From the IMG/VR virus record IMGVR_UViG_3300042888_001055: 64,000 nucleotides of DNA; one strand, 5' to 3'. This DNA is from a virus. Shown here one piece after another: positions 5,247 through 52,355 of this stretch. Position numbers and translations under genes: made by a program. How positions within the stretch are numbered: the first letter of the stretch is position 1; the number at the start of each line of letters is the position of its first letter. The notes beneath the pieces were generated by a model. That model saw nothing but the letters and a program-made list of their open reading frames with translations. It made no database searches and was not told where the DNA came from.

Positions 5247-5319
5247 ATGCCCAAAATTTGACATTAAATGGATTTGGCTATATAATACATACATAGACAG
5301 TAAAGAAAAGGACTAAATT

Positions 5320-5652
5320 ATGACTAAATTCATCAAGGGCAACTTCTACGGTACAGAGTATGTTGACTATACAAACCCAGTTGACGGTACTACAAAGTTT
5401 GTAGTACGTTTCAAATATGCTAAAGGTAGCAAAGCAAGTTTCCTTACATTCCTTACAAAGAACTTTACAGTTGAGGAATACTTTGCCCGTTTGGAAAGTG
5501 AATCCCCGCTAGAAATCCTACAGTCTAAGGGTTTTATTCAACCCCACATTAAAAAGATGCTCAAAGAACAGGGTTACTCAGTTACTAAATCAGGATTTGA
5601 GCAATTGGTCCAAGATAATGTTGCAAAAATGCAACAAAAATTAGCCGCATAA
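5320..5652 (+). CDS. hypothetical early protein
   Basis: own promoter module and RBS. Confidence 0.8.
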   Translation: MTKFIKGNFYGTEYVDYTNPVDGTTKFVVRFKYAKGSKASFLTFLTKNFTVEEYFARLESESPLEILQSKGFIQPHIKKMLKEQGYSVTKSGFEQLVQDNVAKMQQKLAA

Positions 5653-5715
5653 ATTTGACATTAAATGGATTTGGGCTTATAATAGAATCTTAGACAGTTA
5701 GATAAAGGACATAAA

Positions 5716-6036
5716 ATGACAGACCAAGAATTTGATGTTAAATTTGCTTATTTTGATAAAGCACGTGACGAGTTGGGTTTGAATGCCGTTTGGTCAATCT
5801 ACGAGGTTGACGCCTTGCACGAAACTCATCCTTTCAAAGGTGTCACAAAAGTTATCTATCAGGCTTATGGATCCGGTGATCATGAGGTTGCTATTGAAGG
5901 TAATACTTGGAAGTCATTGTATATTGCGGCTGATACTCTTATCAGTAACAGTGGTGACAACCATCACATTTTTATTGAGTCTTTCAAACAAAGCTCAATT
6001 GACCCTGAAATCTTATTTGTGACTACAGGCTCCTAA
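5716..6036 (+). CDS. hypothetical early protein
   Basis: own promoter module and RBS. Confidence 0.8.
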   Translation: MTDQEFDVKFAYFDKARDELGLNAVWSIYEVDALHETHPFKGVTKVIYQAYGSGDHEVAIEGNTWKSLYIAADTLISNSGDNHHIFIESFKQSSIDPEILFVTTGS

Positions 6037-6101
6037 ATTTGACAATAAATCAATTTGGGTATATAATAGAATCTTAAACAGTTAAACAATAGGAGTTAAA
6101 C

Positions 6102-6368
6102 ATGAAAGCATTGCAAAAATACATTGACCAGAAGAATCACTGGAACAGTTTCTTCAAAGGTGAGCAATACGAAATTGCTACTGCCCAAGGTCGTCAACGT
6201 TTGGCAGATCAAATTGATTCTGCTCTTAGCCCTGAGAACTTGACCTGCGATGGTGAACTTCCCCGCGCAGAGGTCAATCGGAGATATAAGGAGTTGATGA
6301 CTGCCGCTAAACAATTGAAACAGTTGGATCCATCTGTTAAGTTTTACGAATACGAAACTGAAATTTAA
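6102..6368 (+). CDS. hypothetical early protein (LSPENLTCDGE)
   Basis: own promoter module and RBS. Confidence 0.8.
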   Translation: MKALQKYIDQKNHWNSFFKGEQYEIATAQGRQRLADQIDSALSPENLTCDGELPRAEVNRRYKELMTAAKQLKQLDPSVKFYEYETEI

Positions 6369-6375
6369 GGAGAAG

Positions 6376-7119
6376 ATGATGTACGGATTTGCTAACGTAT
6401 CAAATATGACTAGTCGTCAAATTCAACGTATGGGTCACGAGGATGATGCTACTCCTTATCGTGCAAGAACCAAAACTCAAAAGGTTGTTGTGAATTACAA
6501 TGCCGATGATGTGTGGAGTGCGGCATGTGCGGCTCAACGTATCAATGGTAGTTATATCAAGTTGAGCGTGGTTTCAGAATCAGATCCTGCTACAACAAAA
6601 CTATCCAATCGTATGATTATTGAACAATTGTTAGCAGACCTATCAGGTATCACCGACAAGGATCGTGAACAGGGTGTAAAGGTTCGTGCTTTTTATCAAG
6701 CATATACATTCAAGATCCTGCAAGGTAAACAACTAAGTGATTTTGACAACACCGCAATGCTTATTGCTAATCGTGATGTTATCACTGGTAATTATGATGT
6801 TGCTGTTATTGCTAGTTTGCCTTCATGCTACGAGCGTGGTGTTGTACGTCAATCGGCGGATCAACGTATTAACTTTGCTACAGGTGGTTTTATTGGTAAA
6901 GCTAATGACAAGGTGAATGCTTCTATTGAAGTATTGAAATCAGTATTTTCAATGAAATGGAATACAAACTATGTTACTGGTATTACTACTGATGACCAAG
7001 TAGTGTTCTTTGCTTATAAAGAAGCATTGGATATTGGCAAAGTACTTGAAATTCAAGGTACTGTTAAAGCACATAGAGATAACAGTACCCAACTTAATCG
7101 TGTAAAGGTGATTGCGTGA
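6376..7119 (+). CDS. hypothetical protein, probable C-terminal OB-fold
   Basis: GTVKAH...TQLNRVK beta pattern. Confidence 0.65.
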   Translation: MMYGFANVSNMTSRQIQRMGHEDDATPYRARTKTQKVVVNYNADDVWSAACAAQRINGSYIKLSVVSESDPATTKLSNRMIIEQLLADLSGITDKDREQGVKVRAFYQAYTFKILQGKQLSDFDNTAMLIANRDVITGNYDVAVIASLPSCYERGVVRQSADQRINFATGGFIGKANDKVNASIEVLKSVFSMKWNTNYVTGITTDDQVVFFAYKEALDIGKVLEIQGTVKAHRDNSTQLNRVKVIA

Positions 7120-7343
7120 ATACAGAATTGATTCAAAAGTTAAAGGCACAATGTATCGTGCGTGAAGTACGTGGTACTAATGCGTTTGACAATTATATGG
7201 TTGATCGGTTTGATACTGAAAAGTTTGCAAAACTGATTGTCAAAGAATGTGACCGTTATGCCCGTAGTGTGTGGGAACATGGTCCTTTGTTAGGTAGAGA
7301 CCTGTTAATCCATTTTGGAATTGAGGAGATGAGTGATGAATAA
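7116..7343 (+). CDS. KFAxLIVxEC-family small protein
   Basis: EKFAKLIVKEC. Confidence 0.65.
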   Translation: MNTELIQKLKAQCIVREVRGTNAFDNYMVDRFDTEKFAKLIVKECDRYARSVWEHGPLLGRDLLIHFGIEEMSDE

Positions 7344-7566
7344 AGATATGCAAATTATGTTTAAGCAAGCAGGTGGTTATATTGAAATTGATGAGGACGG
7401 TAATATTTTTACCTATGCACATGATTTTGATCCTGATAAGTTTGCTAGGTTGGTTATTGAGTCTTGTACTCAAACATTAGTCAATCATGGCTATACAGAT
7501 GCGGCAACTGTTTTAGAAACAGAGTATGCTGAAAATTGGCAAAAGTATGAATTTCCGGAGATTTAA
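7333..7566 (+). CDS. KFAxLIVxEC-family small protein
   Basis: DKFARLVIESC. Confidence 0.65.
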   Translation: MMNKDMQIMFKQAGGYIEIDEDGNIFTYAHDFDPDKFARLVIESCTQTLVNHGYTDAATVLETEYAENWQKYEFPEI

Positions 7567-7567
7567 A

Positions 7568-15178: not shown

Positions 15179-16384
15179 ATGTCAACAGAAACAAAATTAA
15201 GTCATTGCTCATTCTGCGGTAATCATAAAGATACCGTTAATAAATTAATCGTCGGAGAAGATGTTGCTATTTGTAGCGACTGTATTGAGTTATGTACTCA
15301 ATTAATGGTAGATGAAAATAATACTTCAGATGAGGTCATTGAAAAAGACCATCTTAGATATGATCCAGAAACTATTAAAGATTTCTTAGACCAACATATT
15401 ATTGGTCAAATTAATGCTAAAATGGTTCTTAGTGTAGCTATCGCTAATCACTATAAACGTATTAACAATCCTCCTAAAGATTTAGAGATACATAAGGGCA
15501 ATGTATTATTGATCGGACCAACTGGTTCAGGTAAAACCTTGCTTGCTAAAACAGTAGCAAAATATCTCAAAGTGCCCTTCATTGTTGCTGATGCTACAAG
15601 TTTAACAGAAGCCGGATATGTAGGTGATGATGTTGAATCAATGATTAGTATGCTAGTCAACGCTGCCGGGGGAGATCCTAAGTTAGCAGAACGTGGTATA
15701 GTGTTTGTTGATGAGATTGACAAGATTGCCCGTAAGAGTGAGGGTGCTAGTATTACCCGTGACGTATCAGGTGAAGGCGTCCAGCAAGCATTATTGAAGA
15801 TGGTTGAAGGTACTGTATGTCGTATTCCAGCAGGTGGTGGACGTAAACATCCTAGCGGTGATATGATTGAAGTTAATACAAAAGACATTCTGTTCATTGC
15901 GGGCGGAGCTTTTGTTGGATTAAAGGATATTGTTAACAATAGGATAAATGGAACTAGTATTGGATTTGGTGCTGATATTAAGGACTCACGTAAAGATGGT
16001 GATTTATCTATGGTTAGTCCAGATGATTTAACACGATTTGGAATGATTCCTGAATTCATTGGACGTTTCACTACTACAGTTAATGTAGATAATTTGACTA
16101 AAGATGAAATGATTCAGGTTCTAACCAAAGTTAAAAACAACTATATTGACCAATATAAATATCTATTAAGTTTAGATGACATTGAATTAGATTTTACAGA
16201 AGATGCCATCTCACAACTAGCCGAAAATACAATGAAATTAAAGACCGGTGCCCGTGGTTTACATACAGAGATTGAAAAGGTTTTGATGCCTCATATGTAT
16301 AACACTAAGAAGTACCGTGAAAATAACATTAAAAAGATAAATATTAATCAGGAGCAAATTTTACAGCCAAAAGCCGCAATATGA
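15179..16384 (+). CDS. clpX: ATP-dependent Clp protease ATPase subunit ClpX
   Basis: CSFCG Zn domain, [30 protein letters not shown] loop. Confidence 0.97.
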
Positions 16385-16599: not shown

Positions 16600-16650
16600 T
16601 TTCCCTAAATAATATATTTTTTTACACAATCTATTATAATAAATACTTTT

Positions 16651-18603: not shown

Positions 18604-18613
18604 TCTAAACAAC

Positions 18614-20183: not shown

Positions 20184-20198
20184 TAATCAAATCAATAG

Positions 20199-22286: not shown

Positions 22287-22883
22287 ATGAGCTTAGTCCC
22301 AATGGTATTAGAACAAACAAGTAAAGGCGAACGTAGTTATGACATTTACAGCCGTCTACTAAAAGATCGTGTTATTTTACTTGAAGGTGAGGTGCATGAC
22401 CAAATGGCAAATCTAATCGTTGCTCAACTACTGTACTTAGAGAGTGAAGATTCAGATAAGGATATCAGCATCTATATCAATAGCCCGGGTGGCTCAGTAA
22501 CAGCTGGTATGGCAATCTATGATTGTATGCAATTCATTAGACCAGATGTTCAAACTATTGTTATGGGTCAGGCTTGTTCAATGGGAAGTTTACTAGGCCA
22601 AGCTGGTGCAAAAGGTAAACGTAGTATTCTACCCAATGCTCGGCATATGATTCATCAACCCTCAGGTGGTGCCCGTGGTCAGGCTACTGATATGGAGATT
22701 CAAGTTAAAGAAATACTAGCTATGAAGAAATCACTAACACAAATCTATGTTGACCACAATAGTGTAGGAAAGACATTTGAGGAGCTTGCAAAAGACATGG
22801 AACGTGACTTTTTTATGAGTGCAAGTGAGGCAGTAGCGTATGGCCTAGCAGATAATCTGTTGCAAAAACGCAACATGTCCTAA
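22287..22883 (+). CDS. clpP: Clp protease proteolytic subunit ClpP
   Basis: [27 protein letters not shown]. Confidence 0.97.
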
Positions 22884-22946
22884 ATTTGACAATAAATCAT
22901 TTTGGGTCTATAATACAATCTTAGACAGTTAAATAAAGGACTACAA

Positions 22947-23213
22947 ATGACTAAGAAAATTTCTATCAAAGTATTCGGTGACCCTGGACACGCTTGGGCA
23001 CGTTTCCCCAAAGCACGACTGGTCAGTCTTGGTATCGCTGATAAAATCACCCCCTATAGTTATCAAAATGGTGCTAATGCTTTCCTTGAGGAAGACTGTG
23101 ACCTGTCAACACTAATGACGGCTCTTAAAGCTAAAGGGTATGAAGTTAAATTCAACGAAAGCTTTACCAATAAACAAAGCAAAATTCGTGGTTATTGCTC
23201 ATACCAAATTTGA
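22947..23213 (+). CDS. hypothetical early protein (DPGHAW/LEEDCD)
   Basis: own promoter module. Confidence 0.8.
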   Translation: MTKKISIKVFGDPGHAWARFPKARLVSLGIADKITPYSYQNGANAFLEEDCDLSTLMTALKAKGYEVKFNESFTNKQSKIRGYCSYQI

Positions 23214-23268
23214 CAATAAATGGTTTTGGGTATATAATAGAGTCTTATTCAGTCAAAAGGAGTTAGAA

Positions 23269-23556
23269 ATGAGTTTACGTTACGACACAATAGGTGAAAT
23301 GATTGCTACAAACGAGCAGGAAAAACGTCAAATCCGCATGTATGGTTGCACAGAAGACCAAATGCGTGAGGCTGTAGAACAAAGTAGTACTTTTTGCTTC
23401 TCAGGTCCTGCAATGATGGCCGCTAGTCTTATGTCTGATGCACAAGAAATGATTAATACCGAGTACGGTGACATTGACTATATGCGAGCCGAAGATGCCC
23501 GTCAAGCCCTCAATCGTGCTAAGTGGATCCTTTTTGAGTATTGCGACAAACGTTAA
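23269..23556 (+). CDS. hypothetical early protein (start moved to MSLRY)
   Basis: promoter module and AGGAG precede ATG 23269. Confidence 0.8.
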   Translation: MSLRYDTIGEMIATNEQEKRQIRMYGCTEDQMREAVEQSSTFCFSGPAMMAASLMSDAQEMINTEYGDIDYMRAEDARQALNRAKWILFEYCDKR

Positions 23557-23619
23557 AATTTGACAATAAATGGTTTTGGGTATATAATAGAATCTTAAAC
23601 AGTCAACTAAAGGACACAA

Positions 23620-23880
23620 ATGAAAGAAGTTACAGCAATCAAAGTTATCCAAAAAGATGCAGAGTTTTTGGGTATGGGTTTCTTGTCAATGATGAAATTC
23701 ATTGAAACTAACCCGTTAGCACAAACCGCAAAAACTTTGGAAGCATTCAAGGTTCTTAACCCATACTATGTTTTTCCTAAGAAAACGGTCAAAAACTTGA
23801 TGACCGGCAAGGAAATAGAGATTGATGCTGACACTCCACACTGTTGTAATCCTGCAACAGAGACTTACTGGTCAATGTAA
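23620..23880 (+). CDS. hypothetical early protein (TPHCCNPATETYWSM)
   Basis: own promoter module. Confidence 0.8.
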   Translation: MKEVTAIKVIQKDAEFLGMGFLSMMKFIETNPLAQTAKTLEAFKVLNPYYVFPKKTVKNLMTGKEIEIDADTPHCCNPATETYWSM

Positions 23881-23946
23881 AAATTTGACAATAAATGGGT
23901 ATTCTGCTATAATAGAATCTTAAACAGTAAAGAAAAGGACTAAAAA

Positions 23947-24219
23947 ATGCGTACAAAAACTATCATTGACGGATTCAAAAACTCACAAAAATTCCGTGTA
24001 ATTTTTAAAGGTGATGGAAGCGAAAACGATGTTGGTATGTATATGACTATCAAGCAAATGACGGAAATGTTTGCTACCAATACAGCCCGTACAGTTTGCT
24101 GGGATGCATTGATTAAATTGTCGTATTTGCGTTATGAAGCCAAACGTAAAAATGAGACGGTTCCTACAGGATTAGGTCATACTTTCCGCAACAAACAAGT
24201 CCAAGTTGACTTGGTGTAA
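23947..24219 (+). CDS. hypothetical early protein
   Basis: own promoter module. Confidence 0.8.
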   Translation: MRTKTIIDGFKNSQKFRVIFKGDGSENDVGMYMTIKQMTEMFATNTARTVCWDALIKLSYLRYEAKRKNETVPTGLGHTFRNKQVQVDLV

Positions 24220-24285
24220 AATTTGACAATAAATGGCATTTGTGCTATAATATATTCTTAGACAGTTAAATAAAGGAGTTTTAAA

Positions 24286-24564
24286 ATGGCTAGTCTTCAA
24301 ACAGTTTATTCACTTGGTCCTGGATTTATTTTGCAATTAAACCCGTTCAGTAATACATTGGATAAGAGGTCGAAACAATTCATGTTCAATGAAATGATGA
24401 CTGATCCAACTGCAACTTGGACTGGATCAGAAATTGTTGAAATGCGTGAACGGTCTTTACAGATGTGCGGTACTACATCCGACTCTCCCGAGATTCGTGC
24501 TACACGGGATTTTCATCAATATATGGTCCAAGAGGGTTGGATTATAGAGCGGCTTGAGGCTTGA
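24286..24564 (+). CDS. hypothetical early protein
   Basis: own promoter module. Confidence 0.8.
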   Translation: MASLQTVYSLGPGFILQLNPFSNTLDKRSKQFMFNEMMTDPTATWTGSEIVEMRERSLQMCGTTSDSPEIRATRDFHQYMVQEGWIIERLEA

Positions 24565-24623
24565 CAATAAATCACTTTGGGTATATAATAGAATCTTAGA
24601 CAGTTAAATAAAGGACTTAAAAA

Positions 24624-25115
24624 ATGGCTACTCGTTCTACAATCTCATTAGAATTCGCTGATGGTACTATCGGTCAGGTATACTGTCACTGGGATGGTTA
24701 CTTGGCTCACAACGGTAAGATGTTGATGGAATACTATTCTAATCCCTTCGTAATGCGGGACCTGATTGATTTAGGTGATATCTCTAGTTTGCGTCCAACG
24801 ATCGGTACAAAGCACCCATTCAGTCACTATGATATGGAAGACATGACATTGGTTGAATATTCTCATTTGTACAAAGACATGACTACATTCTATGGTCGTG
24901 ATCGTGGTGAAGTAGGTTGCGAGGCTCGCTATTACAATGATATCAATGATTATTTTAATAAGTGCGAACATCAGGAATATGACTATATCCTGCGCAACAT
25001 TGATGGCAAAGCTGTTTGGTTTGTTTGTGACCACGACGGAGCCTTTGTTACATTAGAGTCTGCAATTATGGACGAAGAAGATCGTATTGCACAAGATGAA
25101 ACAGAGGTAGCTTAA
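24624..25115 (+). CDS. hypothetical early protein (YCHWDGY)
   Basis: own promoter module. Confidence 0.8.
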   Translation: MATRSTISLEFADGTIGQVYCHWDGYLAHNGKMLMEYYSNPFVMRDLIDLGDISSLRPTIGTKHPFSHYDMEDMTLVEYSHLYKDMTTFYGRDRGEVGCEARYYNDINDYFNKCEHQEYDYILRNIDGKAVWFVCDHDGAFVTLESAIMDEEDRIAQDETEVA

Positions 25116-40978: not shown

Positions 40979-41812
40979 ATGAAACAAGATCCTCGCTCAA
41001 TAATAAACACAACTGAGGATCATACCTTTAATAAGCCTGCTGACAAAAAAGTCATACCTAGGACACTTGACAAATATAACCTAATATGGAAAACAGATAG
41101 ACCAGATACAAGAGATTACAAATATCAAGTAACAGCAAATACAAATCCTAACTTTGTTGATTTAAGAAGTCATTGTAGTCCAATTGAAAATCAAGGTAAT
41201 CTGGGAAGTTGTACTGGACAAGCTATTGCGGGTGCTATTGAATTACTAAACAAACGTAATGGTAAACCAACAGATGTTAGTAGATTGTTTATCTATTACT
41301 ATGAACGACTATTATTGGGTACTGTTAACTATGATAGTGGTGCTTATATACGTGATGGTATAAAAGCAACAAATCACTATGGTGCTAGTTTAGAAACTTA
41401 TTGGCCGTACAACATTAGAAAATTTAGACTAGAACCAATCAATGAAGCAAAGATTGACGCATTGAATCGTAAAGTAACACGATACGAAAGAGTAAATGAT
41501 TTTAATGGATGTATTGACGCATTAACAAATGGTTATCCAGTTATAATAGGCTTTCATGTTTATCAAAGTTTTATGTCATCTACTGTTGCTAGAACAGGTA
41601 GAATGCCCTATCCAAATACAAAACGTGAAAAGCTATTAGGTGGTCATGCTGTGTTGCTTGTTGGATATGATAAGCGTAAGAAAGTCTTTATTGTCAGAAA
41701 CAGTTGGGGACCTTATTGGGGAGATAAGGGTTACTTCTACATGCCATTTGATGTTATCAAACCTAATATGAGCAGTGATTATTGGATCATTAAGTCGGTT
41801 AACAATCCATAA
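40979..41812 (+). CDS. papain-family (C1A) cysteine peptidase
   Basis: QGNLGSC, GGHAV, RNSWG..WGDKGY. Confidence 0.92.
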   Translation: MKQDPRSIINTTEDHTFNKPADKKVIPRTLDKYNLIWKTDRPDTRDYKYQVTANTNPNFVDLRSHCSPIENQGNLGSCTGQAIAGAIELLNKRNGKPTDVSRLFIYYYERLLLGTVNYDSGAYIRDGIKATNHYGASLETYWPYNIRKFRLEPINEAKIDALNRKVTRYERVNDFNGCIDALTNGYPVIIGFHVYQSFMSSTVARTGRMPYPNTKREKLLGGHAVLLVGYDKRKKVFIVRNSWGPYWGDKGYFYMPFDVIKPNMSSDYWIIKSVNNP

Positions 41813-41858
41813 CTTCTAAATTATAATAAATAGTAGTATAACAATTAAAGGACCATTA

Positions 41859-44800
41859 ATGGCAACAACACCCCCAATGATCGGTGGAGCTGATCCGTCT
41901 GTATTAAGATCATTAGAAACACAAAAACCCTCAGTAGCAAGAACAAGTCCCCCTACAGTTTCTGCTAGTACAGGTTCAGCAACCTCAGGTGGAACGGCAA
42001 TAGCTAGAAGTATTGCTCCACAAGTGTCTGGTGACACAATAACCTATAATCAAGCTACACAAACAGTTTCAGGAGCATCATTAACTATTACATCAGCAAC
42101 TAATAATGAACCAGCCGATGTTGTAACTGTATTTAATAGCAATAAAGCTATCTCTGTTAGTGCAGTTAATCAAACAGTAAATTCATATAACGTTAACACC
42201 TATTCAGGAAATGAATATACCAACGATGACGTTGCTAACTTTTTACCAACATTTACAGGTACAGTAGGTGCCGGCAATGTAACTGTTACGGGTACTGTAT
42301 ACACTAGTGGTATAAGTTCTGCTGGATTAGCATCATTAACCATATTAAATGTTTCTACTATAGCTAATCTTGGTGCTGTGAGTAATTTAATAATTACAGG
42401 TGGTACAGGTGGACAATATTTACAAACAGACGGAACTGGTAATTTAAGTTGGGCAGCCGGGGGCGGTGGAGGAAACGGATCACCCGGCGGTGCTAACACC
42501 CAAGTTCAATTTAATGATGCCGGTGCTTTTGGTGGTAACTCTGCATTTACTTTCAACAAAACGACCGGTGCATTAGCAGTTACTGGTAATGGCACATTTG
42601 GTAACGTGAGTGCAACTACATTTACAGGTGCGTTAACAGGTGCGGCAACAAGTGCAACTACTGCAGGTACAGTAACAACAGCCGCACAAGGTAATATCAC
42701 AAGTGTTGGTACATTAACATCCTTGAATTCTAGTGGTACTGTTACTGCACCGGCATTTACTGCTAATACAGGTGTATTTACCGGTAACGCTAGTGGATTA
42801 AGTTCATTGGTTGGTGCTAATGTATCTGGTTTTGTACCTAATGCCAATGTTGCTAATACGGCTTTTGCAGTAGCATTAGCTAATGTATCCGGAGTAGGAA
42901 ATATTGCTTCAATTAATTTAGATGGTAATTTAAGTAACATATTATATGGTAATGGTGTCTTTGCATCGGCTCCGGCTGGTGGAGGTTATGGTAACAGTAA
43001 TGTCGCAACATTCTTAGCAAGTTATGGCAGTAATACAATGACTACAACTGGTAATGTATCAGTTGGTAATATAATTGGTAATGGACAAGCATTAACTGGC
43101 TTAGCTGGTGCTAATGTAACAGGGCAAGTAACTTATGCCGCTACAGCTAACGCAGTGGCCGGTGCTAATGTATCTGGTGCTGTCACATACGCAACAACTG
43201 CTAATAGCGTAGCAGTAGCAAACGTATCAGGTATTGGTAATATCTCTACCATTAACTTAAATGGCAATTCATCACAAATATTATATGGTAATGGTGTATT
43301 TGCGGCCGCATCTGTTGCTGTCTCATATGGTGATAGTAATGTAGCAACATTTTTAGCCTCATACGGCAGTAATACTATTACTACTACAGGAAATGTAAGT
43401 GTTGGTAATATCATAGGTAATGGACAAGCATTGACCGGCATTGCCGGCGGTAATGTGTCTGGTGCAGTATCATTTGCTACCACAGCGAATGCCGTAGCCG
43501 GTGCTAATGTGTCTGGTGCAGTATCATTTGCTACCACAGCGAATGCCGTAGCCGGTGCTAATGTAAGTGGCACTGTGGCTTCAGCAACATCTGCCGCATC
43601 AGCAAACGCAGTGGCAGGTGCTAATGTATCAGGTGCAGTATCATTTGCTACCACAGCAAATGCCGTAGCCGGTGCTAATGTATCAGGTGCAGTATCATTT
43701 GCCGCAACGGCTAACAGTGTTGCAGTAGCTAATGTAAGTGGTATTGGTAATATTGCTACAATAAACAAAGACGGTAACGCAAGCAATATTCTTTACGGTA
43801 ATGGTGTCTTTGCATCGGCTCCAGCCGGCGGTGTGTACGGTGATAGTAATGTTGTAACATTATTGGCTAGTTATGGTAGCAATACTATTACTACAACCGG
43901 TAATGTATCCGTTGGTAATATCATAGGTAATGGACAAGCATTGACTGGCTTAGCTGGTGGTAATGTGTCAGGGCAAGTAGGTAACGCATTAGTATCAGGT
44001 ACAGTGTACACAAATGCACAACCTAATATTACTAGTGTTGGTACACTAACAAGTCTATCTGTTACAGGTAATGCAAATGTTGGTAACTTAGGTACTGCAA
44101 CTGCAATTATTACTACCGGTAACATTACTACTATCAATAGCGGTTTGTTACAGAATGGTAACTCAAACATCACTATTACTAGTAACGGTAACATCTCTTT
44201 GTCAGCAGTAGGTGCACCAAATGAAGTAGTAATTACTTCAACTGGCGTAAATGTAGCAGGAACATTAAGTGTTACTGGTAATGTGACTGGCGGCAACATC
44301 AGCACTGGCATCATCACACTCACAAACGGTGCAGTAATAAAAGATACTGTTGATGATGCTGTGGCATTTGGTCAAGGTGCTGGTAATACATCACAAGGTG
44401 CCGGTTCAATAGCCATTGGGTTTGCAGCTGGGAACACCGCGCAAGGTGGATATTCTGTAGGCGTTGGTCGAGAAGCTGGTTCAAATGCTCAAGGTGGTCT
44501 ATCAGTTGCCATTGGATTCACTGCTGGTTATACTTCACAGGGCACTTATGCACTAGCTATTGGTGCAAGTACTGGTTATAATACTCAAGGTACTCAAGCA
44601 GTAGCTATTGGTGCAAGTGCAGGTTACGCTAATCAAGGTGCTTCAGCAGTGGCTGTTGGTTTTGCTGCTGGTGGTACCAACCAAGCTAGCAACTCAATCA
44701 TATTAAATGCTACTGGCACTGAGCTAAATCAAACTACAGCCAATACATTCACAGTAGCACCAGTTCGCAATGATGTAGCTAATATTGCTCAAGTAATGTT

Positions 44801-45245
44801 CTACAATACTACTAGCAAAGAAGTTACATATGGTAACACAATAAGTGTTGCCGGTAATGTGATTGGTGGCAACATCTCAACTACCGGTAACATCTCAGGT
44901 AACACAAACGGTTTTACTATCGGTTATTTGAATGTCCCTCAAATTTCGGCAGCTAATGCTACACTTGCATTAACTGATGCAGGTAAACATTACTACTCAA
45001 CTACCGCTGGTAACTTGACATTGACTATTCCAACTAACGCTAGCGTGGCATTTGCTACTGGTACAGCAATTAGTATTGTTGTTCAGGCGGCAGGTAATGT
45101 GTTAGTTAATGCAACATCGGGTGTAACGTTGTATATGGGAGGCAACGCAACCGCTGGTAACAGAGTTGTGGGTACTTATGGTATGGCTACACTAATGAAG
45201 GTGGCAAGTGATACTTGGTTCATTAGCGGTGCAGGAGTAGCATAA
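41859..45245 (+). CDS. long tail-fibre/adhesin-like protein
   Basis: GANVSGAV repeats, 15-aa AIG..AG..Q YadA-head-like repeats, PGGANTQVQFND motif. Confidence 0.78.
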   Translation: MATTPPMIGGADPSVLRSLETQKPSVARTSPPTVSASTGSATSGGTAIARSIAPQVSGDTITYNQATQTVSGASLTITSATNNEPADVVTVFNSNKAISVSAVNQTVNSYNVNTYSGNEYTNDDVANFLPTFTGTVGAGNVTVTGTVYTSGISSAGLASLTILNVSTIANLGAVSNLIITGGTGGQYLQTDGTGNLSWAAGGGGGNGSPGGANTQVQFNDAGAFGGNSAFTFNKTTGALAVTGNGTFGNVSATTFTGALTGAATSATTAGTVTTAAQGNITSVGTLTSLNSSGTVTAPAFTANTGVFTGNASGLSSLVGANVSGFVPNANVANTAFAVALANVSGVGNIASINLDGNLSNILYGNGVFASAPAGGGYGNSNVATFLASYGSNTMTTTGNVSVGNIIGNGQALTGLAGANVTGQVTYAATANAVAGANVSGAVTYATTANSVAVANVSGIGNISTINLNGNSSQILYGNGVFAAASVAVSYGDSNVATFLASYGSNTITTTGNVSVGNIIGNGQALTGIAGGNVSGAVSFATTANAVAGANVSGAVSFATTANAVAGANVSGTVASATSAASANAVAGANVSGAVSFATTANAVAGANVSGAVSFAATANSVAVANVSGIGNIATINKDGNASNILYGNGVFASAPAGGVYGDSNVVTLLASYGSNTITTTGNVSVGNIIGNGQALTGLAGGNVSGQVGNALVSGTVYTNAQPNITSVGTLTSLSVTGNANVGNLGTATAIITTGNITTINSGLLQNGNSNITITSNGNISLSAVGAPNEVVITSTGVNVAGTLSVTGNVTGGNISTGIITLTNGAVIKDTVDDAVAFGQGAGNTSQGAGSIAIGFAAGNTAQGGYSVGVGREAGSNAQGGLSVAIGFTAGYTSQGTYALAIGASTGYNTQGTQAVAIGASAGYANQGASAVAVGFAAGGTNQASNSIILNATGTELNQTTANTFTVAPVRNDVANIAQVMFYNTTSKEVTYGNTISVAGNVIGGNISTTGNISGNTNGFTIGYLNVPQISAANATLALTDAGKHYYSTTAGNLTLTIPTNASVAFATGTAISIVVQAAGNVLVNATSGVTLYMGGNATAGNRVVGTYGMATLMKVASDTWFISGAGVA
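43440..43740 (+). repeat. intragenic tandem repeats (about 54 bp, AGANVSGAVSFATTANAV)
   Basis: near-identical ggtgcagtatcatttgctaccacagc copies. Confidence 0.8.
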
Positions 45246-46093
45246 TGGGTGGTATGGTAGCTCTAATAATAGGTACGAACGGGGCCGCTGCAAATCCAGC
45301 TCCAGGTCCATCTCCAGCTCCAGCTGGTCAACAAGCCTATACAACAGCCGGGACATATTCTTGGGTTGCCCCTGCAGGTGTAACTTCTGTATCTGTAGTT
45401 TGTATCGGCGGCGGAGGGGGCGCAGTAGCTGTAAATAATGCTTTTCAATGGGGCGCGGGCGGTGCTTTAGCTTACGCTAATAATATTACAGTTGCTCCCG
45501 GAAATTCTTATACGGTTGTTGTCGGTGCAGTAGGCGTGTCATTCGGTGGCGCAAACGGCGGAGACAGTAGTTTTAATTCTACAAGTTGTATGGCGGGTGG
45601 AGGAGCTACTGGTTCAGTTATAGGAACTGCCGCGGCCGGCGGAGTAGTTATTTATGGCACTGGCGGGGCAGGTGGGGCAAGTGGTACGGTTATACTTGGT
45701 TCAGTTTCAAGAGCAGGTGGCGGCGGTGCTGGTGGATATTCAGGTGCTGGCGGTGCTGGTGGAAATGCAGGAGCTTCTGGAGCTTCTGGTGCTGGTGGTG
45801 GCGCTGGTGGTGGTGGCGGGTATCCTGGAAGTGGAAGTACAAACGGCGCTTCAGGTGGAGGCACAGGAATATTTGGAGAAGCCTCAAGTGGTACTGGTGG
45901 TGCTCCCGGAGTAAATGGTAATCCCGGCAGTAATGGAACTATTGGTGCTAGCCTTCTAGTTGGTGGCAATTATGGCGGTGGTGGTGTTGGCTCTTCTTTT
46001 GGAACAGACGGAGGAGGTGCAGTACGTATCATTTGGGCTGGCACTTCTGGCATTACCAGAGCCTTCCCTTCAACAAACACAGGTGATTTATAA
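45245..46093 (+). CDS. Gly-rich virion protein (fibre tip/adhesin-like)
   Basis: YTTAGTYSW.AP.GV..V.VVCIGGGGG..GAVRIIW. Confidence 0.7.
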   Translation: MGGMVALIIGTNGAAANPAPGPSPAPAGQQAYTTAGTYSWVAPAGVTSVSVVCIGGGGGAVAVNNAFQWGAGGALAYANNITVAPGNSYTVVVGAVGVSFGGANGGDSSFNSTSCMAGGGATGSVIGTAAAGGVVIYGTGGAGGASGTVILGSVSRAGGGGAGGYSGAGGAGGNAGASGASGAGGGAGGGGGYPGSGSTNGASGGGTGIFGEASSGTGGAPGVNGNPGSNGTIGASLLVGGNYGGGGVGSSFGTDGGGAVRIIWAGTSGITRAFPSTNTGDL

Positions 46094-46095
46094 TT

Positions 46096-46121
46096 AAAAA
46101 AGCCCCAATAGGGGCTTTTTT
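46096..46121. terminator. bidirectional intrinsic terminator
   Basis: A6-GCCCC-AATA-GGGGC-T6 between convergent genes. Confidence 0.85.
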
Positions 46122-46332
46122 ATTTCATCTTCTCTAGCATATAGTTTGTGAATTTACTTTCACACATTGCTGGAATCTCAACAAACGGATCCTCTAAAAA
46201 GAAAGGACACCCTGTTTTCCATTTACCATGTTTCTTAAAGAATTTAAATTCTAGCAAATCTTTTCTATCTGCAGGATTAAATTCTCTACGAGGGTTAAAC
46301 GAGCGACGGAATGTAGATAGATTTAAGTTCAT
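46120..46332 (-). CDS. hypothetical protein
   Basis: ORF. Confidence 0.65.
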   Translation of the reverse strand: MNLNLSTFRRSFNPRREFNPADRKDLLEFKFFKKHGKWKTGCPFFLEDPFVEIPAMCESKFTNYMLEKMK

Positions 46333-46357: not shown

Positions 46358-46747
46358 TTAGAGTGGAGCGTCTTCAACTGCCGCAAGAATATCTTCTGCG
46401 GACACTTTTGCTTTTTTAGCACGTGCTTTGATAACATCAATACTAGGCTTTGTTTTAGAAGCTTTTACTTTAACTTCACCTTTACTTGCTTCTTTAGTTT
46501 TATCTTCAAGTGTATCAGCAATAGTTGCCTGATCACTTGCACTAGCAAACTCAGATAGAGTAGCAAGATATTTTAATGCTTCTACTTTTGTCATTTCTGA
46601 AGGTAGTTCAACAAATTCCACACGACTAGCACCACCTTTAGTGAATTGCTTGATACGACGGACCATGTCATCGGTGAAACGAACTTTAGCGTTACCATTG
46701 TGAATAGTAATACCAGCGACTTTGAAAGTTTGATTAGAATTAGCCAT
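46358..46747 (-). CDS. hypothetical protein
   Basis: AAGGA RBS, promoter at 46808-46836. Confidence 0.75.
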   Translation of the reverse strand: MANSNQTFKVAGITIHNGNAKVRFTDDMVRRIKQFTKGGASRVEFVELPSEMTKVEALKYLATLSEFASASDQATIADTLEDKTKEASKGEVKVKASKTKPSIDVIKARAKKAKVSAEDILAAVEDAPL

Positions 46748-46856
46748 ATGTTTCCTTTAATTAAAAGCTAAGTTAAAAATGTACTGATATCACTCAGCAC
46801 TGTTATAATGATAACACAATAGCCATTTATTGTCAACCATTGTGTTACCCATTATT

Positions 46857-47330
46857 TTACAAGTTGTGGGTAGCACCATACAACTTTACAAACTCCTCAG
46901 GAGTTTGCGTTTTAGAATACAAGTCATAAGCCAAATTCAGAATAGTTTGCTTGGCTTTTTCAAGGTCCTGTTTAACCTTGCCTCGTTTAGCACGATATCC
47001 CTTTTCTAGTTTCTCGCCATAGTGCTTCATATTGCCACGATGGTCAGTCCATTCTAAATTAGAGACATTGTTGTTGTTTTTAACACCATCAATATGATTG
47101 ACAATGTTTTTATTTTTAGGCTTTCTCAAATATGTTTCTGCCACTAGCCGATGAATAGTAGTATTATGTATACCACCATCAACTGATGACAGTTTAACCC
47201 GTTCATATCCCTGAAAGACATTCGGCTTAAGTTTGGTAGGTGCTCCTCGCTTAGTAGAATACAGTTCTCCGGTTTCTGTGATATGATAGTCTTTAAAACC
47301 CTTGATTGGTTTCATTTTAATTTTAACCAT
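46857..47330 (-). CDS. NUMOD4-HNH endonuclease
   Basis: IKGF.DY.I...G, HRLVA..VNHIDG.K.NN...NLEW. Confidence 0.88.
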   Translation of the reverse strand: MVKIKMKPIKGFKDYHITETGELYSTKRGAPTKLKPNVFQGYERVKLSSVDGGIHNTTIHRLVAETYLRKPKNKNIVNHIDGVKNNNNVSNLEWTDHRGNMKHYGEKLEKGYRAKRGKVKQDLEKAKQTILNLAYDLYSKTQTPEEFVKLYGATHNL

Positions 47331-47333: not shown

Positions 47334-47750
47334 TTATTTCTCCAAAATGTAAGATTTATTCCATTTACCAATATTAACGTCAACATAGTATGCTGTATTA
47401 AAATAGTCTGTCATTGCGTCTGATTCGTCAAACCAATCGGCCGCTTTTAATGCTACAAAAGCCTCGGTTAAGAATTCCTTAGCAACACCATCGTAGTGAT
47501 CCTGAAACCAATATTGATTTACCTGATCGTAACCATTTGTGTTGGGTTTGAAACCTCGTTGTACCTGATAAAAATCATTGCCACAGACCTTGTTGCTATT
47601 TCCAATAAAGTCAATAACACCCGATTTGAGGGTCAACGAAATGGTCATGTGATTACGGACACTCAGTGAGCCCTTAACCTTGTACTTAGCCAAGATTGGC
47701 TTGAGTGCTTGAGCAATTTTTTGTTTGCGTTCCTGATTCATGTAAGCCAT
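47334..47750 (-). CDS. hypothetical early protein
   Basis: own promoter module. Confidence 0.8.
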   Translation of the reverse strand: MAYMNQERKQKIAQALKPILAKYKVKGSLSVRNHMTISLTLKSGVIDFIGNSNKVCGNDFYQVQRGFKPNTNGYDQVNQYWFQDHYDGVAKEFLTEAFVALKAADWFDESDAMTDYFNTAYYVDVNIGKWNKSYILEK

Positions 47751-47812
47751 TTTGTTTCCTTTTCTTTACTGTTTAAGATTCTATTATAGCACCAAATCCA
47801 TTTAATGTCAAA

Positions 47813-47944
47813 TTATTGTTCCATTGGGTCACCGAGAAAATACTCAGTGACGTAGGTGACAACAATATTTTTGCCAGAATGAATCTTTAAGTACTCACCT
47901 AGTGCTTCTACATTACGAAATAAATAGCCATTTGCTTTGTACAT
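47813..47944 (-). CDS. 43-aa early protein (not in ORF track)
   Basis: full promoter module and AAGGA RBS; MYKANGYLF... Confidence 0.7.
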   Translation of the reverse strand: MYKANGYLFRNVEALGEYLKIHSGKNIVVTYVTEYFLGDPMEQ

Positions 47945-48007
47945 TTCTAGTCCTTTATTTAACTGTCTAAGTATCTATTGTAGCAGAAAGACCATTTATT
48001 GTCAAAT

Positions 48008-48169
48008 TTAGGAGTTTACTGTTTTGAACGGGCTAAACACTTCCCTATTCTTAACGGAATCGGACACGTCATAGACCCAAGTTACAGGCACATCTAGTAC
48101 AGCGGAGATGGTAGCAGGATGTGTACCTTTCTCCAACATTTCCATGATATCAATTTCTAAATCACTCAT
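48008..48169 (-). CDS. 53-aa protein, possible HTH (not in ORF track)
   Basis: coupled; MSDLEIDIMEMLEKG.HPATIS. Confidence 0.6.
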   Translation of the reverse strand: MSDLEIDIMEMLEKGTHPATISAVLDVPVTWVYDVSDSVKNREVFSPFKTVNS

Positions 48170-48339
48170 TTTGCTTTCCTAATATTAAATAAACCACCCA
48201 AAATCACTATAGCTAACCAGGACTCTAATGAGTACTTAATAGCTAAGATTGGGAACAACACATTCAATGACCAAATAGTCAATAACGGGCCAATTGCTAC
48301 GAGGGCAATGACAATCACAATTCCTACAAAATAACTCAT
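48166..48339 (-). CDS. 57-aa membrane protein (not in ORF track)
   Basis: ATGA-coupled, two TM segments. Confidence 0.6.
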   Translation of the reverse strand: MSYFVGIVIVIALVAIGPLLTIWSLNVLFPILAIKYSLESWLAIVILGGLFNIRKAK

Positions 48340-48623
48340 ACAACCTCCAACATGTTAGCGGGCACTCTCCAAACACTATTAATGAATGAACCTGGCTTTG
48401 AGGAATCAACAATAATAAACTTACGATTGATTTTCTTTACAACACCAGAGATTGTACCACGGGTTGAACTAGTAAATTTCACATTGGATCCTATTGTCAA
48501 TGCCGATTTGTTTCGTACCACTAGTTGGGCACGGGCAAAACGAATAGCATCATTAATGCTGTTCAATTCTTCATTAGTAAGATCACCCTGCATGATAGCA
48601 GTATTAATTTGCTTGATGTTCAT
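48336..48623 (-). CDS. hypothetical early protein, SH3/KOW-like
   Basis: own promoter module. Confidence 0.75.
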   Translation of the reverse strand: MNIKQINTAIMQGDLTNEELNSINDAIRFARAQLVVRNKSALTIGSNVKFTSSTRGTISGVVKKINRKFIIVDSSKPGSFINSVWRVPANMLEVV

Positions 48624-48685
48624 AAGAACTCCTTTTGACTGAATAAGACTCTATTATAGACCCAAAACCATTTATTGTCAAGTTT

Positions 48686-48925
48686 TTATTGTTTGATGTT
48701 TTTAATTGAATTTTCCATGTCTTCCAGATGCTTGCGATACTGGATACGGCCAAGATTGATGGTGTACATCACATAAGCCAACATAGCAATACAGAATGTA
48801 ATTCCAATGTAAGGTACTGCTGACACTGGAATGAGTGTAAGCAAATAGATAGTTGCGGATCCGGCGATTGCGGCGAGTGCCAATTCTTTTGCGGTCTGTG
48901 CGACTGCTTCAGTTTTTTCTGACAT
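48686..48925 (-). CDS. early membrane protein
   Basis: own promoter, two TM segments. Confidence 0.7.
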   Translation of the reverse strand: MSEKTEAVAQTAKELALAAIAGSATIYLLTLIPVSAVPYIGITFCIAMLAYVMYTINLGRIQYRKHLEDMENSIKNIKQ

Positions 48926-48982
48926 ATTGAGTTTCCTTTCTAAGTTTCAATATAAGTATTGTAACACCGAAACGATTTATTG

Positions 48983-49141
48983 TCAAATTTCGGTGCTGTT
49001 TGGATGCTTGGGTTTACGAACGTACATACCTTTTTTGGATAATACGACCTTAGGTTTGAACGGAGTGTTGCTAGAAAACAACACTTTATGAGCCCGATGT
49101 TTGGGCTGTTCAATAGTGAATGATAAGATTTTTCGTTTCAT
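48983..49141 (-). CDS. ArfA-like alternative ribosome-rescue factor (52 aa, not in ORF track)
   Basis: PFKPKVVLSKKGMYVRKPKH versus ArfA [23 protein letters not shown]. Confidence 0.6.
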   Translation of the reverse strand: MKRKILSFTIEQPKHRAHKVLFSSNTPFKPKVVLSKKGMYVRKPKHPNSTEI

Positions 49142-49174
49142 AATACGTATTATAGCATAGGAAACGTATTTATG

Positions 49175-49552
49175 TCAACTTTTGGCAGTTGTATCCTGGT
49201 TCAAGCACCCAAATACAACGACGGGGACAGTGCCAAAAGGTGGGGGTAACAGTACAGTAATAGCAAACCAAGGATTGATTCCGGCATCATTACAACGCCT
49301 AATTGTAGTTGCAATCCATAACCAACATGATAATACACTACCTACACATAATATTGCTAATGAAATAATCCATCCAAGTAGTCCTATTACTACAATAGTG
49401 AAGGGTAAACTTAGTACAAATATCATGAAAGCCAATGAACTAGTAAGACCTAGTAGGACCCAACTAATTAAATATACACCCCAATATTCGCTACGAGTAC
49501 TAGTACCTGTAAAGGCAAAGTATTTTTTATATTGTTCTAATTTGTTTATCAC
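49175..49552 (-). CDS. DUF805 membrane protein
   Basis: FTG.S.RSEYW, IRR.ND.G..W. Confidence 0.85.
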   Translation of the reverse strand: MINKLEQYKKYFAFTGTSTRSEYWGVYLISWVLLGLTSSLAFMIFVLSLPFTIVVIGLLGWIISLAILCVGSVLSCWLWIATTIRRCNDAGINPWFAITVLLPPPFGTVPVVVFGCLNQDTTAKS

Positions 49553-50564: not shown

Positions 50565-50672
50565 ATTTTTCTATTCTATATTGACTGAAGGGATACTTTT
50601 CTTGTAACCATTCAATCATACCTTCTTCGTAGGGTAAAAAGACCGTACGAGCTTTATTAGTTATATAAAGTA

Positions 50673-50909
50673 TCATTTGATTTTAACATTCATTTTTTTC
50701 AAAATAGTTTCAGCATAAGTACCGCCACCTTGCTTATATACATCTTTAACTTCTTTGGCACATTCACGCACTACCAATTCATAAAACTTGTCTAGTTCTT
50801 TATCATAGGAACTAGACCAATCAATATTACCTTTACCCGGACCATGTGGTTCATTAGCCCAAGTAACAAAGCCGGCCTCTTTGGCAAGGTCTTTAATCTT
50901 TTTATTCAT
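50673..50909 (-). CDS. KFAxLIVxEC-family small protein
   Basis: DKFYELVVREC. Confidence 0.65.
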   Translation of the reverse strand: MNKKIKDLAKEAGFVTWANEPHGPGKGNIDWSSSYDKELDKFYELVVRECAKEVKDVYKQGGGTYAETILKKMNVKIK

Positions 50910-50934
50910 TAATCAGTCCTCAATAATACATTAC

Positions 50935-51243
50935 TTATGCCGTAAACCAATCTATATCTTCTTTTGCTTCAACCGATTCGGCTCCATCATACTCATTGAT
51001 TTTAAACTCAATGCCTTCAGGTACCCAAGCAACTTCTAAGTCCATCAGACCACCATCGTATATTTCAGGATACTTCAATGCCACATATGTTCGTAGTTCA
51101 TCAAATTTTTCGTCCAATACAAATTGTGCTATGGCAGGTTCAAAAATAAGTTCAGGCATTGTAGGGTTCCAAGTGGACCATCCTGCACCAAATCCCGGGC
51201 TGTATAATACAGCAACCATTCCATCTCTAACCAATTTGTTCAT
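50935..51243 (-). CDS. hypothetical phage protein (SPGFGAGWSTW, EYDGAE)
   Basis: ORF. Confidence 0.75.
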   Translation of the reverse strand: MNKLVRDGMVAVLYSPGFGAGWSTWNPTMPELIFEPAIAQFVLDEKFDELRTYVALKYPEIYDGGLMDLEVAWVPEGIEFKINEYDGAESVEAKEDIDWFTA

Positions 51244-51244
51244 T

Positions 51245-51472
51245 TTATCTCCAAGCGTTTACTAATCCAATTAAACAAGTAACTATTGCTACCACGTTCA
51301 CTACTAATTGCGGATTGTTCTTTACACGTATCGTCCATGTCAAAAACATAATTGTACCTAATGTAAATGCTACAATGTTGTAGGGATGTGCATCAGGTCC
51401 AATTGCATTACATATATGGCCAACAATAATGAATACTGCCCCAATCCATTGCAATATATCGTTTACTTTCAT
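51245..51472 (-). CDS. membrane protein
   Basis: 3 TM segments; start moved to MKVND. Confidence 0.65.
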   Translation of the reverse strand: MKVNDILQWIGAVFIIVGHICNAIGPDAHPYNIVAFTLGTIMFLTWTIRVKNNPQLVVNVVAIVTCLIGLVNAWR

Positions 51473-51681
51473 TCTACTCCAAAATGTATCTTTGTATTCC
51501 AAATAGCATCACTAAGACGCAATTTGGAATCACTGGCATCAGTCATAATTGTTACACATTCCTTAACAATCAATTCGGCAAACTTTTCAATAACCTGTTT
51601 ATCATACTCATCCATTTCATCCCAGCATCCTTGTGCAGTTAGTCCTGAATGATACATCAAATCTTGAATTTTTTGATTCAT
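51469..51681 (-). CDS. KFAxLIVxEC-family small protein
   Basis: EKFAELIVKEC..HFGVE; start MNQKI. Confidence 0.7.
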   Translation of the reverse strand: MNQKIQDLMYHSGLTAQGCWDEMDEYDKQVIEKFAELIVKECVTIMTDASDSKLRLSDAIWNTKIHFGVE

Positions 51682-51863
51682 TACTTTACTCCAAAATGTT
51701 CTGACAACCATTGTCTTGTGTGAAAACGTGCTATCAATTGATGACCACCTGGATCTAATACATTCATACATTCCTTAACAATCAATTCGGCGAACTTTTG
51801 TTCTTGGTCGGTTGCTTGTGTACCATAGACCTGTTCGGCCAGTTCTTTAATTCGTTCATTCAT
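51681..51863 (-). CDS. KFAxLIVxEC-family small protein
   Basis: QKFAELIVKEC..HFGVK. Confidence 0.7.
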   Translation of the reverse strand: MNERIKELAEQVYGTQATDQEQKFAELIVKECMNVLDPGGHQLIARFHTRQWLSEHFGVK

Positions 51864-52201
51864 TATTTTACTCCAAATGTGTTCAATGCTGGTTGCAATG
51901 TGTTAATCAATTCTGTCTCATGTGCATGAGCAGGACGCTTACCACGAATCACTTCCAACTTACCAAATACAAAACGTTCAGCACCACGCTCACGCAAGGC
52001 ACGTGACAAACCCCAAGTTTTGTTCTCAGTCATGGCCCGTTGCATATGTTTTTGCATACGACGGCGTAATGTCAAAAACACATTGCCTTTATATGACAAT
52101 GCAGTTAAACCAATGTAGTACTCAAGTGTTACAGTATCTTGTATATAGTATATCACTTGATTGCGATCTGTTCTACGTTTACGGGCGATTTTTGAGTTCA
52201 T
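51863..52201 (-). CDS. GIY-YIG-like nuclease
   Basis: VIY..YYIG..R..H..E..LNT; leaderless behind promoter 52208-52236. Confidence 0.65.
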   Translation of the reverse strand: MNSKIARKRRTDRNQVIYYIQDTVTLEYYIGLTALSYKGNVFLTLRRRMQKHMQRAMTENKTWGLSRALRERGAERFVFGKLEVIRGKRPAHAHETELINTLQPALNTFGVK

Positions 52202-52355
52202 AGATGAATTATACATCAAAGCCCATTTATTGTCAAATATTGGTAAAAACCGCTAGAAGTGTATCAGAGTGTATACCTGAGTATTCTAGCGATTTTGAAG
52301 CCCCTGAGGGGGCTAAATGAGTACTTTTGTTTGTAAAAAATGTAATACTTAAGTA

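Follow-up and report, generated by a model that had tools for sequence, protein, structure and literature searches.

A 64,000-nucleotide stretch of the virus record IMGVR_UViG_3300042888_001055 in IMG/VR, referred to in its whole length as the window, carries arrays of small unrelated genes, each headed by a copy of the same module of ~75 bases. Among relatives of this phage, gene content changes exactly at module boundaries, from the upstream stop codon to the downstream ATG, and single hybrid modules remain where cassettes have been deleted. We consider it likely that the module repeats provide portable homology through which cassettes are shuffled by general homologous recombination, in a manner resembling the promoter-early stem-loop (PeSL) cassettes of T4-type phages but without the stem-loop. 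An earlier note on this DNA, made from its sequence alone, had proposed such a recombination handle, with gain, loss and shuffling of the genes attached to it. Comparison with relatives supports that proposal: cassettes have been deleted at hybrid modules and have moved between arrays, and gene order is clearly not identical.

The module has the layout AAATT-TTGACA-ATAAATGG-n-TTTGGGT-n-TATAAT-leader-AAAGGA-ATG. Searching the window for TTGACA-N17-TATAAT with at most one mismatch returned 24 sites versus 1.54 expected from shuffled sequences, while the leader TATAATAGAATCTTARACAGTYAA, with at most three mismatches, was present at 11 sites versus none expected. Across 17 window copies the core is AAATT-TTGACA-(A/T)TAAAT-(GG/CA)-n-TTTGGGT/nnnTGn-TATAAT, and 13 of the 17 also possess the conserved leader and the AAAGGA Shine-Dalgarno (SD) site. 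Naming each module by the first base of its -35 element, nine lie on the plus strand (5258, 5655, 6039, 22886, 23210, 23560, 23885, 24223 and 24561), six on the minus strand (46836, 47811, 48005, 48681, 48986 and 52236), and two minus-strand cores (62793 and 62874) precede the tRNA cluster. One further related promoter, also on the minus strand, begins at 49178 and has an 18-nucleotide (nt) spacer. This census agrees with the approximately 16 copies, plus two before the tRNA operon, counted in the earlier note, and the other particulars of that description were also borne out, with one correction. All eight stop codons said to lie within modules are present: the TGA within TTGACA terminates the open reading frames (ORFs) ending at 23211, 24562, 48983 and 49175, and the TAA of TAAATTTGACA terminates those ending at 5650, 6034, 22881 and 48008. 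The variant leader said to be common to modules 23210 and 48681 is AGAGTCTTATTCAGTCAAAAGGAGTT in both. A scan of the window arrays found no terminator-like sites between cassettes, as had been claimed; the correction is that a good terminator (5226-5239) stands immediately upstream of the first module of the 5.2-kb array. Exact matches between any two window modules have a median length of 15 nt and a maximum of 36 nt.

The same packing is seen in relatives. In 247 unique strict copies, on which the following counts are based, the stop codon of the upstream ORF is the TGA in TTGACA in 93 (38%) and lies 4-8 nt before the -35 element in 87 (35%), so that the upstream stop is inside the -35 element or no more than 8 nt from it in 180 (73%). 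The ATG follows 56-63 nt after the start of the -35 element. With such stop-to-ATG packing, the entire intergenic space is taken up by the module, and a hairpin would have nowhere to fit. In the consensus, AAAaTT precedes the -35 element and AAAGGA the ATG, and information content is high in the -35 element, the 5' half of the spacer, the -10 element with the A that follows it, and much of the leader.

Three complete relatives of ~350 kb were available (G001-G003), the first two of which are referred to as G1 and G2. Both are IMG/VR phage genomes, and their complete records correspond to loci L122-L157. G1 is collinear with the entire window at 85-90% nt identity and G2 at about 75%, and most other module-bearing contigs align to the window at 65-96% nt identity. 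Counts of the promoter core are 17 for the window, 26 for G1 and 29 for G2; most cores stand in rows, and the arrays of all three comprise 2-6 modules.

Do genomes of this group differ preferentially at modules? Alignment of the window to G1 is broken at 10 of 15 module junctions versus 12 of 74 other same-strand junctions (Fisher p=1.8e-4), a comparison that is unaffected by the finding of loci through the module and that comprises few events, with each replaced cassette breaking two junctions. Junctions between small genes are broken in only 2 of 32 cases (p=3e-5 versus modules). Against the more distant G2, 14 of 15 module junctions are broken versus 44 of 74 others (p=0.015), again with few events and with no ascertainment through the module.

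The individual events show where the breaks fall. The cassette at 5716-6036 has another cassette in its place in G1 and five loci and is absent from six loci, in which a single module remains and the two flanking alignments overlap by 74 bp. An extra cassette of 571 bp is inserted at module 22886 in G1 and L038, and insertions of 360-752 bp are found in relatives at module 23885. In G1 and G2, the cassette at 23269-23556 is replaced by an allele just 39% identical, flanked by modules that are about 88% identical. The cassette at 24286-24564 is absent from L038, L046 and L060, and that at 47813-47944 from G1 and seven loci, one hybrid module being left in each case. Lastly, the cassette at 48686-48925 is replaced in G1 and absent, with a hybrid module, from L020, L021 and L070. 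In L020 and L021, the one module that remains has the 5' flank of 48986 followed by the leader of 48681, from which it follows that the crossover fell within the promoter. At these indels, homology extends to the upstream stop codon on one side and to a few bases beyond the downstream ATG on the other, and each deletion junction is marked by a single hybrid module, where the alignments overlap by 34-74 bp. Lineage-specific cassettes in the complete relatives are absent elsewhere in those genomes.

The same effect is seen when all loci are pooled. Where downstream genes are 95-99.5% identical in amino acid (aa) sequence, the upstream neighbor is kept at 33% of module joints versus 79% of other joints, and restricting both genes to fewer than 150 aa gives 35% versus 87%. 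The corresponding values for all genes are 46% versus 71% at 85-95% identity and 11% versus 42% at 50-70% identity. Retention is lower across modules in every divergence bin, and loss of gene adjacency is 2-5 times more common. The slot between clpP and the gene at 24624 has 11 different fillings in 12 loci, which include cassettes of array A (the 5.2-kb array) and array C (46.8-49.2 kb) of the window. Movement between arrays is also evident in G2, where the cassette corresponding to 23620 (74% aa identity; module 23560 in the window) lies directly upstream of the ortholog of gene 6102, which belongs to the other array; in L023, which carries a gene of the 6102 family within the clpP slot; and in L041, in which homologs of the window genes 5320, 23947 and 48336, cassettes of all three window arrays, stand side by side. 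Furthermore, when downstream proteins are 90-97% identical, nt identity is 0.88 in the coding sequence, 0.89 in the leader, 0.78 in the spacer and 0.65 in the upstream flank. Linkage decays across the module, the spacer value having already come close to the 0.71-0.75 of pairs that are far more divergent.

How might the module bring about these changes? Its consensus and the analogy with T4 and PA5oct suggest a sigma70-type promoter with a 5' untranslated region (5'UTR), presumably active early in infection. In the mechanism that we favor, a promoter for host RNA polymerase would be fused to a short unstructured 5'UTR, a Shine-Dalgarno site and a start codon, in about 26-29 copies per 350-kb genome, many in rows and each driving one small ORFan. 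The near-identical ~75 bp between the stop of one gene and the ATG of the next would constitute portable homology for a homologous recombination pathway, probably the RecA/UvsX-type system of the phage itself. Crossover between two modules would then delete, insert, replace or relocate whole promoter-plus-ORF units, perhaps by way of circular intermediates, while leaving the neighbors undamaged. A RecA/UvsX-family protein is encoded in each of G001-G003, whereas the tyrosine integrase family PF00589 is absent from the three genomes, with 14 of 14 control genomes positive. The lack of an integrase, the presence of a RecA/UvsX protein and the variable crossover points together fit general homologous recombination between short repeats.

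PeSL cassettes have been described in the T4-type phages RB49/phi1, T4/PST and KVP40/nt-1 (Arbiol et al. 2010, PMC2839356; Comeau et al. 2014, PMC4122927), and the mechanism was shown experimentally in RB49 and phi1 (PMC2839356; PMC4122927). Excised mini-circles were detected by inverse PCR, crossovers fell between the -10 element and the ATG or near the stem-loop, and T4-type recombination requires less than 50 bp of homology (PMC2839356). The module resembles PeSL in its near-consensus sigma70 promoter repeated in intergenic spaces (TTGACA-N17-TATAAT, as in RB49), its AT-rich upstream box and the SD and ATG at its 3' end, its clustering in variable regions beside small ORFans, and the indels and replacements between relatives that are bounded by the repeats, with chimeric repeats at the junctions. 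Both groups of phages also possess a Gp23-type capsid protein and a RecA/UvsX-family recombinase. The differences are equally clear. The module has no stem-loop or terminator, only the first module of array A being preceded by one, and single-stranded DNA folding of seven modules revealed no structure (z -0.8 to +1.7). In most copies the -35 element contains the upstream stop or is at most 8 nt away from it, so that the cassettes would not be transcriptionally insulated; with no terminators between them, transcripts from upstream modules should read through downstream cassettes, unlike in PeSL. The spacer and a leader of ~25 nt, the latter in four classes, are conserved here as well, and the clade, one of uncultured ~350-kb phages, has its closest affinity with PA5oct/121Q-like jumbo phages rather than with the T-evens. 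The module thus functions like PeSL and shares the features of layout, placement and boundary-aligned change just listed, but not the stem-loop, and we do not count it as a member of that group; the earlier note was correct both in drawing the comparison and in observing that the stem-loop is missing.

Several observations weigh against a recombinational role. In the same genomes, 185 of 279 indel events are not bounded by modules, among them the 4.3-kb block at 41812-46095, an HNH gene with no module on its upstream side, and dnaK. The pairs of loci share phylogenetic history and cannot be counted as independent, and the module itself served to find the loci. Identity between window modules is short, with exact matches of 36 nt at most. 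The enrichment of breaks at modules could also in part reflect selection, a self-expressed cassette being tolerated at promoter joints, rather than a higher rate of crossover. Taken to its limit, the last argument makes the module only a strong, over-determined promoter and leader: turnover would reflect dispensable small early genes and the harmless insertion of self-expressed ones, and the repeat would not raise recombination.

There is precedent for such conservation in promoters. The T4 early "uber" promoters, composed of UP, -35, TGn and -10 elements, are host-polymerase promoters conserved beyond the hexamers (Hinton 2010, PMC2988021), and PA5oct, a capsid relative of the phages studied here, has 32 conserved sigma70-like sites (TTGAC/TATAATA; Lood et al. 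2020, PMC7318152). The module shares with T4 early promoters conservation past the two hexamers, an A/T-rich upstream box and an extended -10 element, but its -35 element is TTGACA rather than GTTTAC, and both the 5' half of its spacer and its transcribed leader are fixed. We know of no Alt-type modification for module-bearing phages, unlike the T4 case. With PA5oct it shares a related capsid lineage, a similar number of promoters (26-29 here) and the TATAAT-A box, although no role in cassette shuffling has been described for the PA5oct promoters (PMC7318152) and no nt similarity to the module was found in cultured phages. Selection for polymerase binding is also apparent in the 3' half of the spacer, which occurs in two forms, TTTGGGTn or nnnTGn (extended -10). 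TGn is present in 62% of copies with an imperfect -10 element versus 26% of those with a perfect TATAAT (p=7e-12). Such compensation for a weak -10 element is a prediction of selection for binding by the sigma70 holoenzyme and points to RNA polymerase itself as the reader of the 3' spacer half. Moreover, the cores that precede the tRNA cluster stand where no shuffling is seen. A promoter alone nevertheless fits poorly with one hybrid module exactly at each deletion junction, with homology that stops precisely at the stop codon and the ATG, with a promoter half almost unlinked from its downstream gene even at 90-97% protein identity, and with the far greater stability of small-gene joints that have no modules. 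We therefore regard it as an improbable account of the whole.

Why, then, are the spacer and leader so well conserved? The earlier note had claimed conservation beyond the needs of sigma70, and both elements are indeed conserved in 199-427 unique copies from other contigs, the figures for the leader being partly inflated by the use of the leader in finding the loci. Positions of the 5' spacer half are 84-100% conserved in 427 unique copies, a figure inflated by the positions used to select the copies. At least four leader classes were found, L1 (AGAATCTTARACAGT...AAAGGAC), L2 (AGAGTCTTATTCAGTCAAAAGGAGTT), L3 (ACATGTATTGATTGATTAAAGGAGC) and L4 (ACTTGTATTGAAACTTAGAAAGGAAA). These mostly accompany particular families of downstream ORFs, although swaps occur, and leaders are nearly identical even where the proteins are just 64-72% identical. 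Comparison of leader or spacer class with the family of the upstream or downstream gene gave no decisive link (purity 0.83 versus 0.74), with a classifier that merged L2 into L1. Conceivably, a factor encoded by the phage recognizes the spacer (ATAAATGG...TTTGGGT) or the leader (CTTAGACAGT) as an operator or as an RNA site and thereby times or processes the cassette transcripts; regulators of transcription, modifiers of RNA polymerase and endoribonucleases would be candidates. This would be compatible with a role in recombination, and the strong 5' spacer conservation, the discrete leader classes and the constancy of leaders over diverging proteins speak for it. However, no Rfam family was found in the modules, tRNAs being the sole matches, the leaders are less structured than shuffled controls, and the GGG/TGn alternatives for polymerase explain the variable half of the spacer. 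With copy selection also inflating the apparent conservation, we think such a site unlikely, to about the same degree as the promoter-only account.

A bolder extension, to which we attach slightly less weight still, would make the module a self-propagating "promoter cassette frame". Its spacer and leader would be read by a dedicated factor (a regulator, a processing nuclease or a recombination helper), the stop within the -35 element would have evolved for seamless swapping of ORFs, and the whole would amount to a clade-wide, homology-based counterpart of the integron for early effector genes.

Misjoining of contigs at the repeated module during metagenome assembly is very improbable as the source of the shuffling. 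Every relative is an IMG/VR contig assembled from a metagenome, and chimeras typically arise at repeats, but the exact matches between modules are shorter than the k-mers with which assemblies usually finish, several contigs from different samples, 5-20% divergent, show the same arrangements, and the lineage-specific cassettes have no other copy in the complete relatives. Least probable of all is a true integron-like system with a dedicated recombinase acting site-specifically at the module: one-gene cassettes stand in rows with boundaries at a fixed sequence, as rows of single unrelated genes stand between repeats in integrons, but an integron depends on a tyrosine integrase, on attC sites that fold and on a single promoter common to its cassettes, whereas here the three complete relatives encode no tyrosine recombinase, the modules show no attC-like hairpin folding, every cassette has its own promoter and the crossover points vary inside the module. 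The earlier description of the arrays as "integron-like" therefore holds by analogy only.

The features of the three arrays and of the isolated cores are as follows, the ORF or cassette given with each module being the one that it is predicted to drive.

5226..5239 (+): intrinsic terminator hairpin before the first module of array A, the sole PeSL-like joint of stem-loop and promoter in the arrays.
5250..5322 (+): module 5258, ATG at 5320; 110-aa ORFan 5320-5652.
5647..5718 (+): module 5655, ATG at 5716; upstream TAA at 5650 within its AAATT box.
5716-6036 (+): 106-aa cassette of module 5655, missing or replaced in relatives.
6031..6104 (+): module 6039, ATG at 6102; heads a long operon reaching the DNA ligase gene.
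22878..22949 (+): module 22886, after clpP (22287-22883); 88-aa cassette.
23202..23271 (+): module 23210, leader L2, upstream TGA in TTGACA; 95-aa cassette.
23552..23622 (+): module 23560; 86-aa cassette.
23877..23949 (+): module 23885, TGn type; 90-aa cassette of family w23947, the most widespread cassette family.
24215..24288 (+): module 24223, TGn type; 92-aa cassette.
24553..24626 (+): module 24561, upstream TGA in TTGACA; heads the operon 24624-29976.
46745..46844 (-): module core 46836, -10 element TATCAT with TGn; 129-aa ORF 46358-46747.
46857..47330 (-): HNH_3 homing-endonuclease gene inside array C, absent from G1, G2, L021 and L051.
47748..47819 (-): module 47811; 138-aa ORF 47334-47750 (phrog_10415, function unknown).
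47942..48013 (-): module 48005, TACAAT with TGn; 43-aa cassette 47813-47944.
48621..48689 (-): module 48681, leader L2; ORFs 48336-48623, 48166-48339 and 48008-48169.
48923..48994 (-): module 48986, TACAAT with TGn, leader L4; 79-aa membrane-like cassette 48686-48925.
49133..49186 (-): related promoter 49178, with TTGACA, 18-nt spacer, TGn and TATAAT; leaderless 50-aa basic peptide 48983-49135.
52196..52244 (-): module core 52236, no leader; 111-aa ORF 51863-52198.
62765..62882 (-): two module cores, 62793 and 62874, with other downstream sequence, before the tRNA/small-RNA cluster; both conserved in G1 and G2.

At promoters 52236 and 49178 the ATG lies 7 nt past the -10 element, and the mRNAs would thus be leaderless. 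Module 46836 has a different and longer leader, in which a 7-bp hairpin (46800-46781, minus strand) followed by ATTTTT precedes the SD of ORF 46358-46747. This leader is also present in G1, and that of G2 has the same start and then diverges; the hairpin could be a 5' stabilizer or an attenuator.

The cassettes were described in the earlier note as unrelated small ORFs of unknown function, and they proved to be so. Those of the window are not paralogs, with mutual identities of 10-24%, on which ground tandem duplication of gene plus promoter was rejected as their origin. None of the cassette ORFs matched a Pfam family, and their PHROG matches, that of 5320-5652 among them, are solely to families of unknown function. 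Families w23947, w47334 and w24624 are the commonest among the cassettes. Foldseek matched neither of the AlphaFold models made for two widespread cassette families (90 aa, pLDDT 87; 138 aa, pLDDT 70.5) to a PDB structure at E<0.4. The 111-aa ORF at 51863-52198 gives a borderline match to GIY-YIG, at 22.0 bits versus a cut-off of 22.6.

Other events in the window resemble recombination at sites other than the module. The gene dnaK (16657-18603) is precisely absent from L113, L012, L064 and L057, with alignments that overlap by 18-29 bp. Two leaders that resemble each other (…CTTGCTT…AGGAGAAAA…ATG) stand on its two sides, at about 16684-16710 and 18653-18675 (window 16651-18673), and its gain or loss looks like the outcome of recombination between these repeated leaders rather than between promoter modules. 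G1, L021, L070 and L029 precisely lack the 4.3-kb block at 41812-46095, which encodes a repeat-rich protein of 1128 aa and a protein of 282 aa; the block runs from a weaker promoter-like site (41799) to a bidirectional terminator (46095-46122), and the 1128-aa protein has repeat units in common with many other loci of G1. A 221-aa gene at 33450-34115 on the minus strand is 87% identical to a G1 gene at 283076-283741, about 57 kb away from the syntenic position. The 755-aa protein with Ig-like repeats encoded next to it (31097-33364) lacks a conserved counterpart in G1.

What kind of phage carries these arrays? The window encodes 16 tRNAs, dnaK, a clpX-like gene, clpP and an ATP-dependent DNA ligase, with the clpX-like gene, dnaK and clpP (Pfam CLP_protease, E=8e-80) forming a chaperone/protease cluster at 15179-22883, just upstream of array B (the array that begins with module 22886). 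Neither megablast of the array nor blastn of the module against 50,697 phage records returned a match, and G1 and G2 have no close cultured relative at the DNA level. At least 118 IMG/VR contigs contain a 21-mer of the leader, many of them in several copies; a search of 185,579 genomes of bacterial and archaeal species found it in none. The leader is therefore phage-specific, and on this result the possibilities of a host promoter copy or a prophage were rejected. All three complete relatives encode a major capsid protein of the Pfam family Gp23 (T4-type; E about 1e-99). The nearest cultured capsids, at 67-73% aa identity, are those of Sinorhizobium phage Phosso, Vibrio phage 2.275.O, Pseudomonas phage PA5oct (68.5%) and the Escherichia coli 121Q-like jumbo phages. 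The window therefore derives from a clade of uncultured ~350-kb jumbo phages with a Gp23-type capsid that is closer to the PA5oct/121Q-like phages than to the T-evens.

These arrays extend promoter-mediated modular shuffling of the PeSL type from a few pairs of cultured T4-type coliphages and vibriophages to a large clade of uncultured 350-kb phages. The hundreds of natural copies of the module allow the effect to be quantified, junctions being broken 2-5 times more often where a module is present, and they indicate that a terminator stem-loop is not needed for the shuffling mechanism. Specific to this clade are the hairpin-less packing with the stop codon in the -35 element, the conserved leader classes and the large natural sample. 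The conserved 75-bp frame could serve as a handle for capturing its associated genes from metagenomes, by PCR or by pattern search. The arrays mark the fastest-changing small, presumably early genes of these phages, and make them candidates for screening for functions in host takeover or anti-defense.

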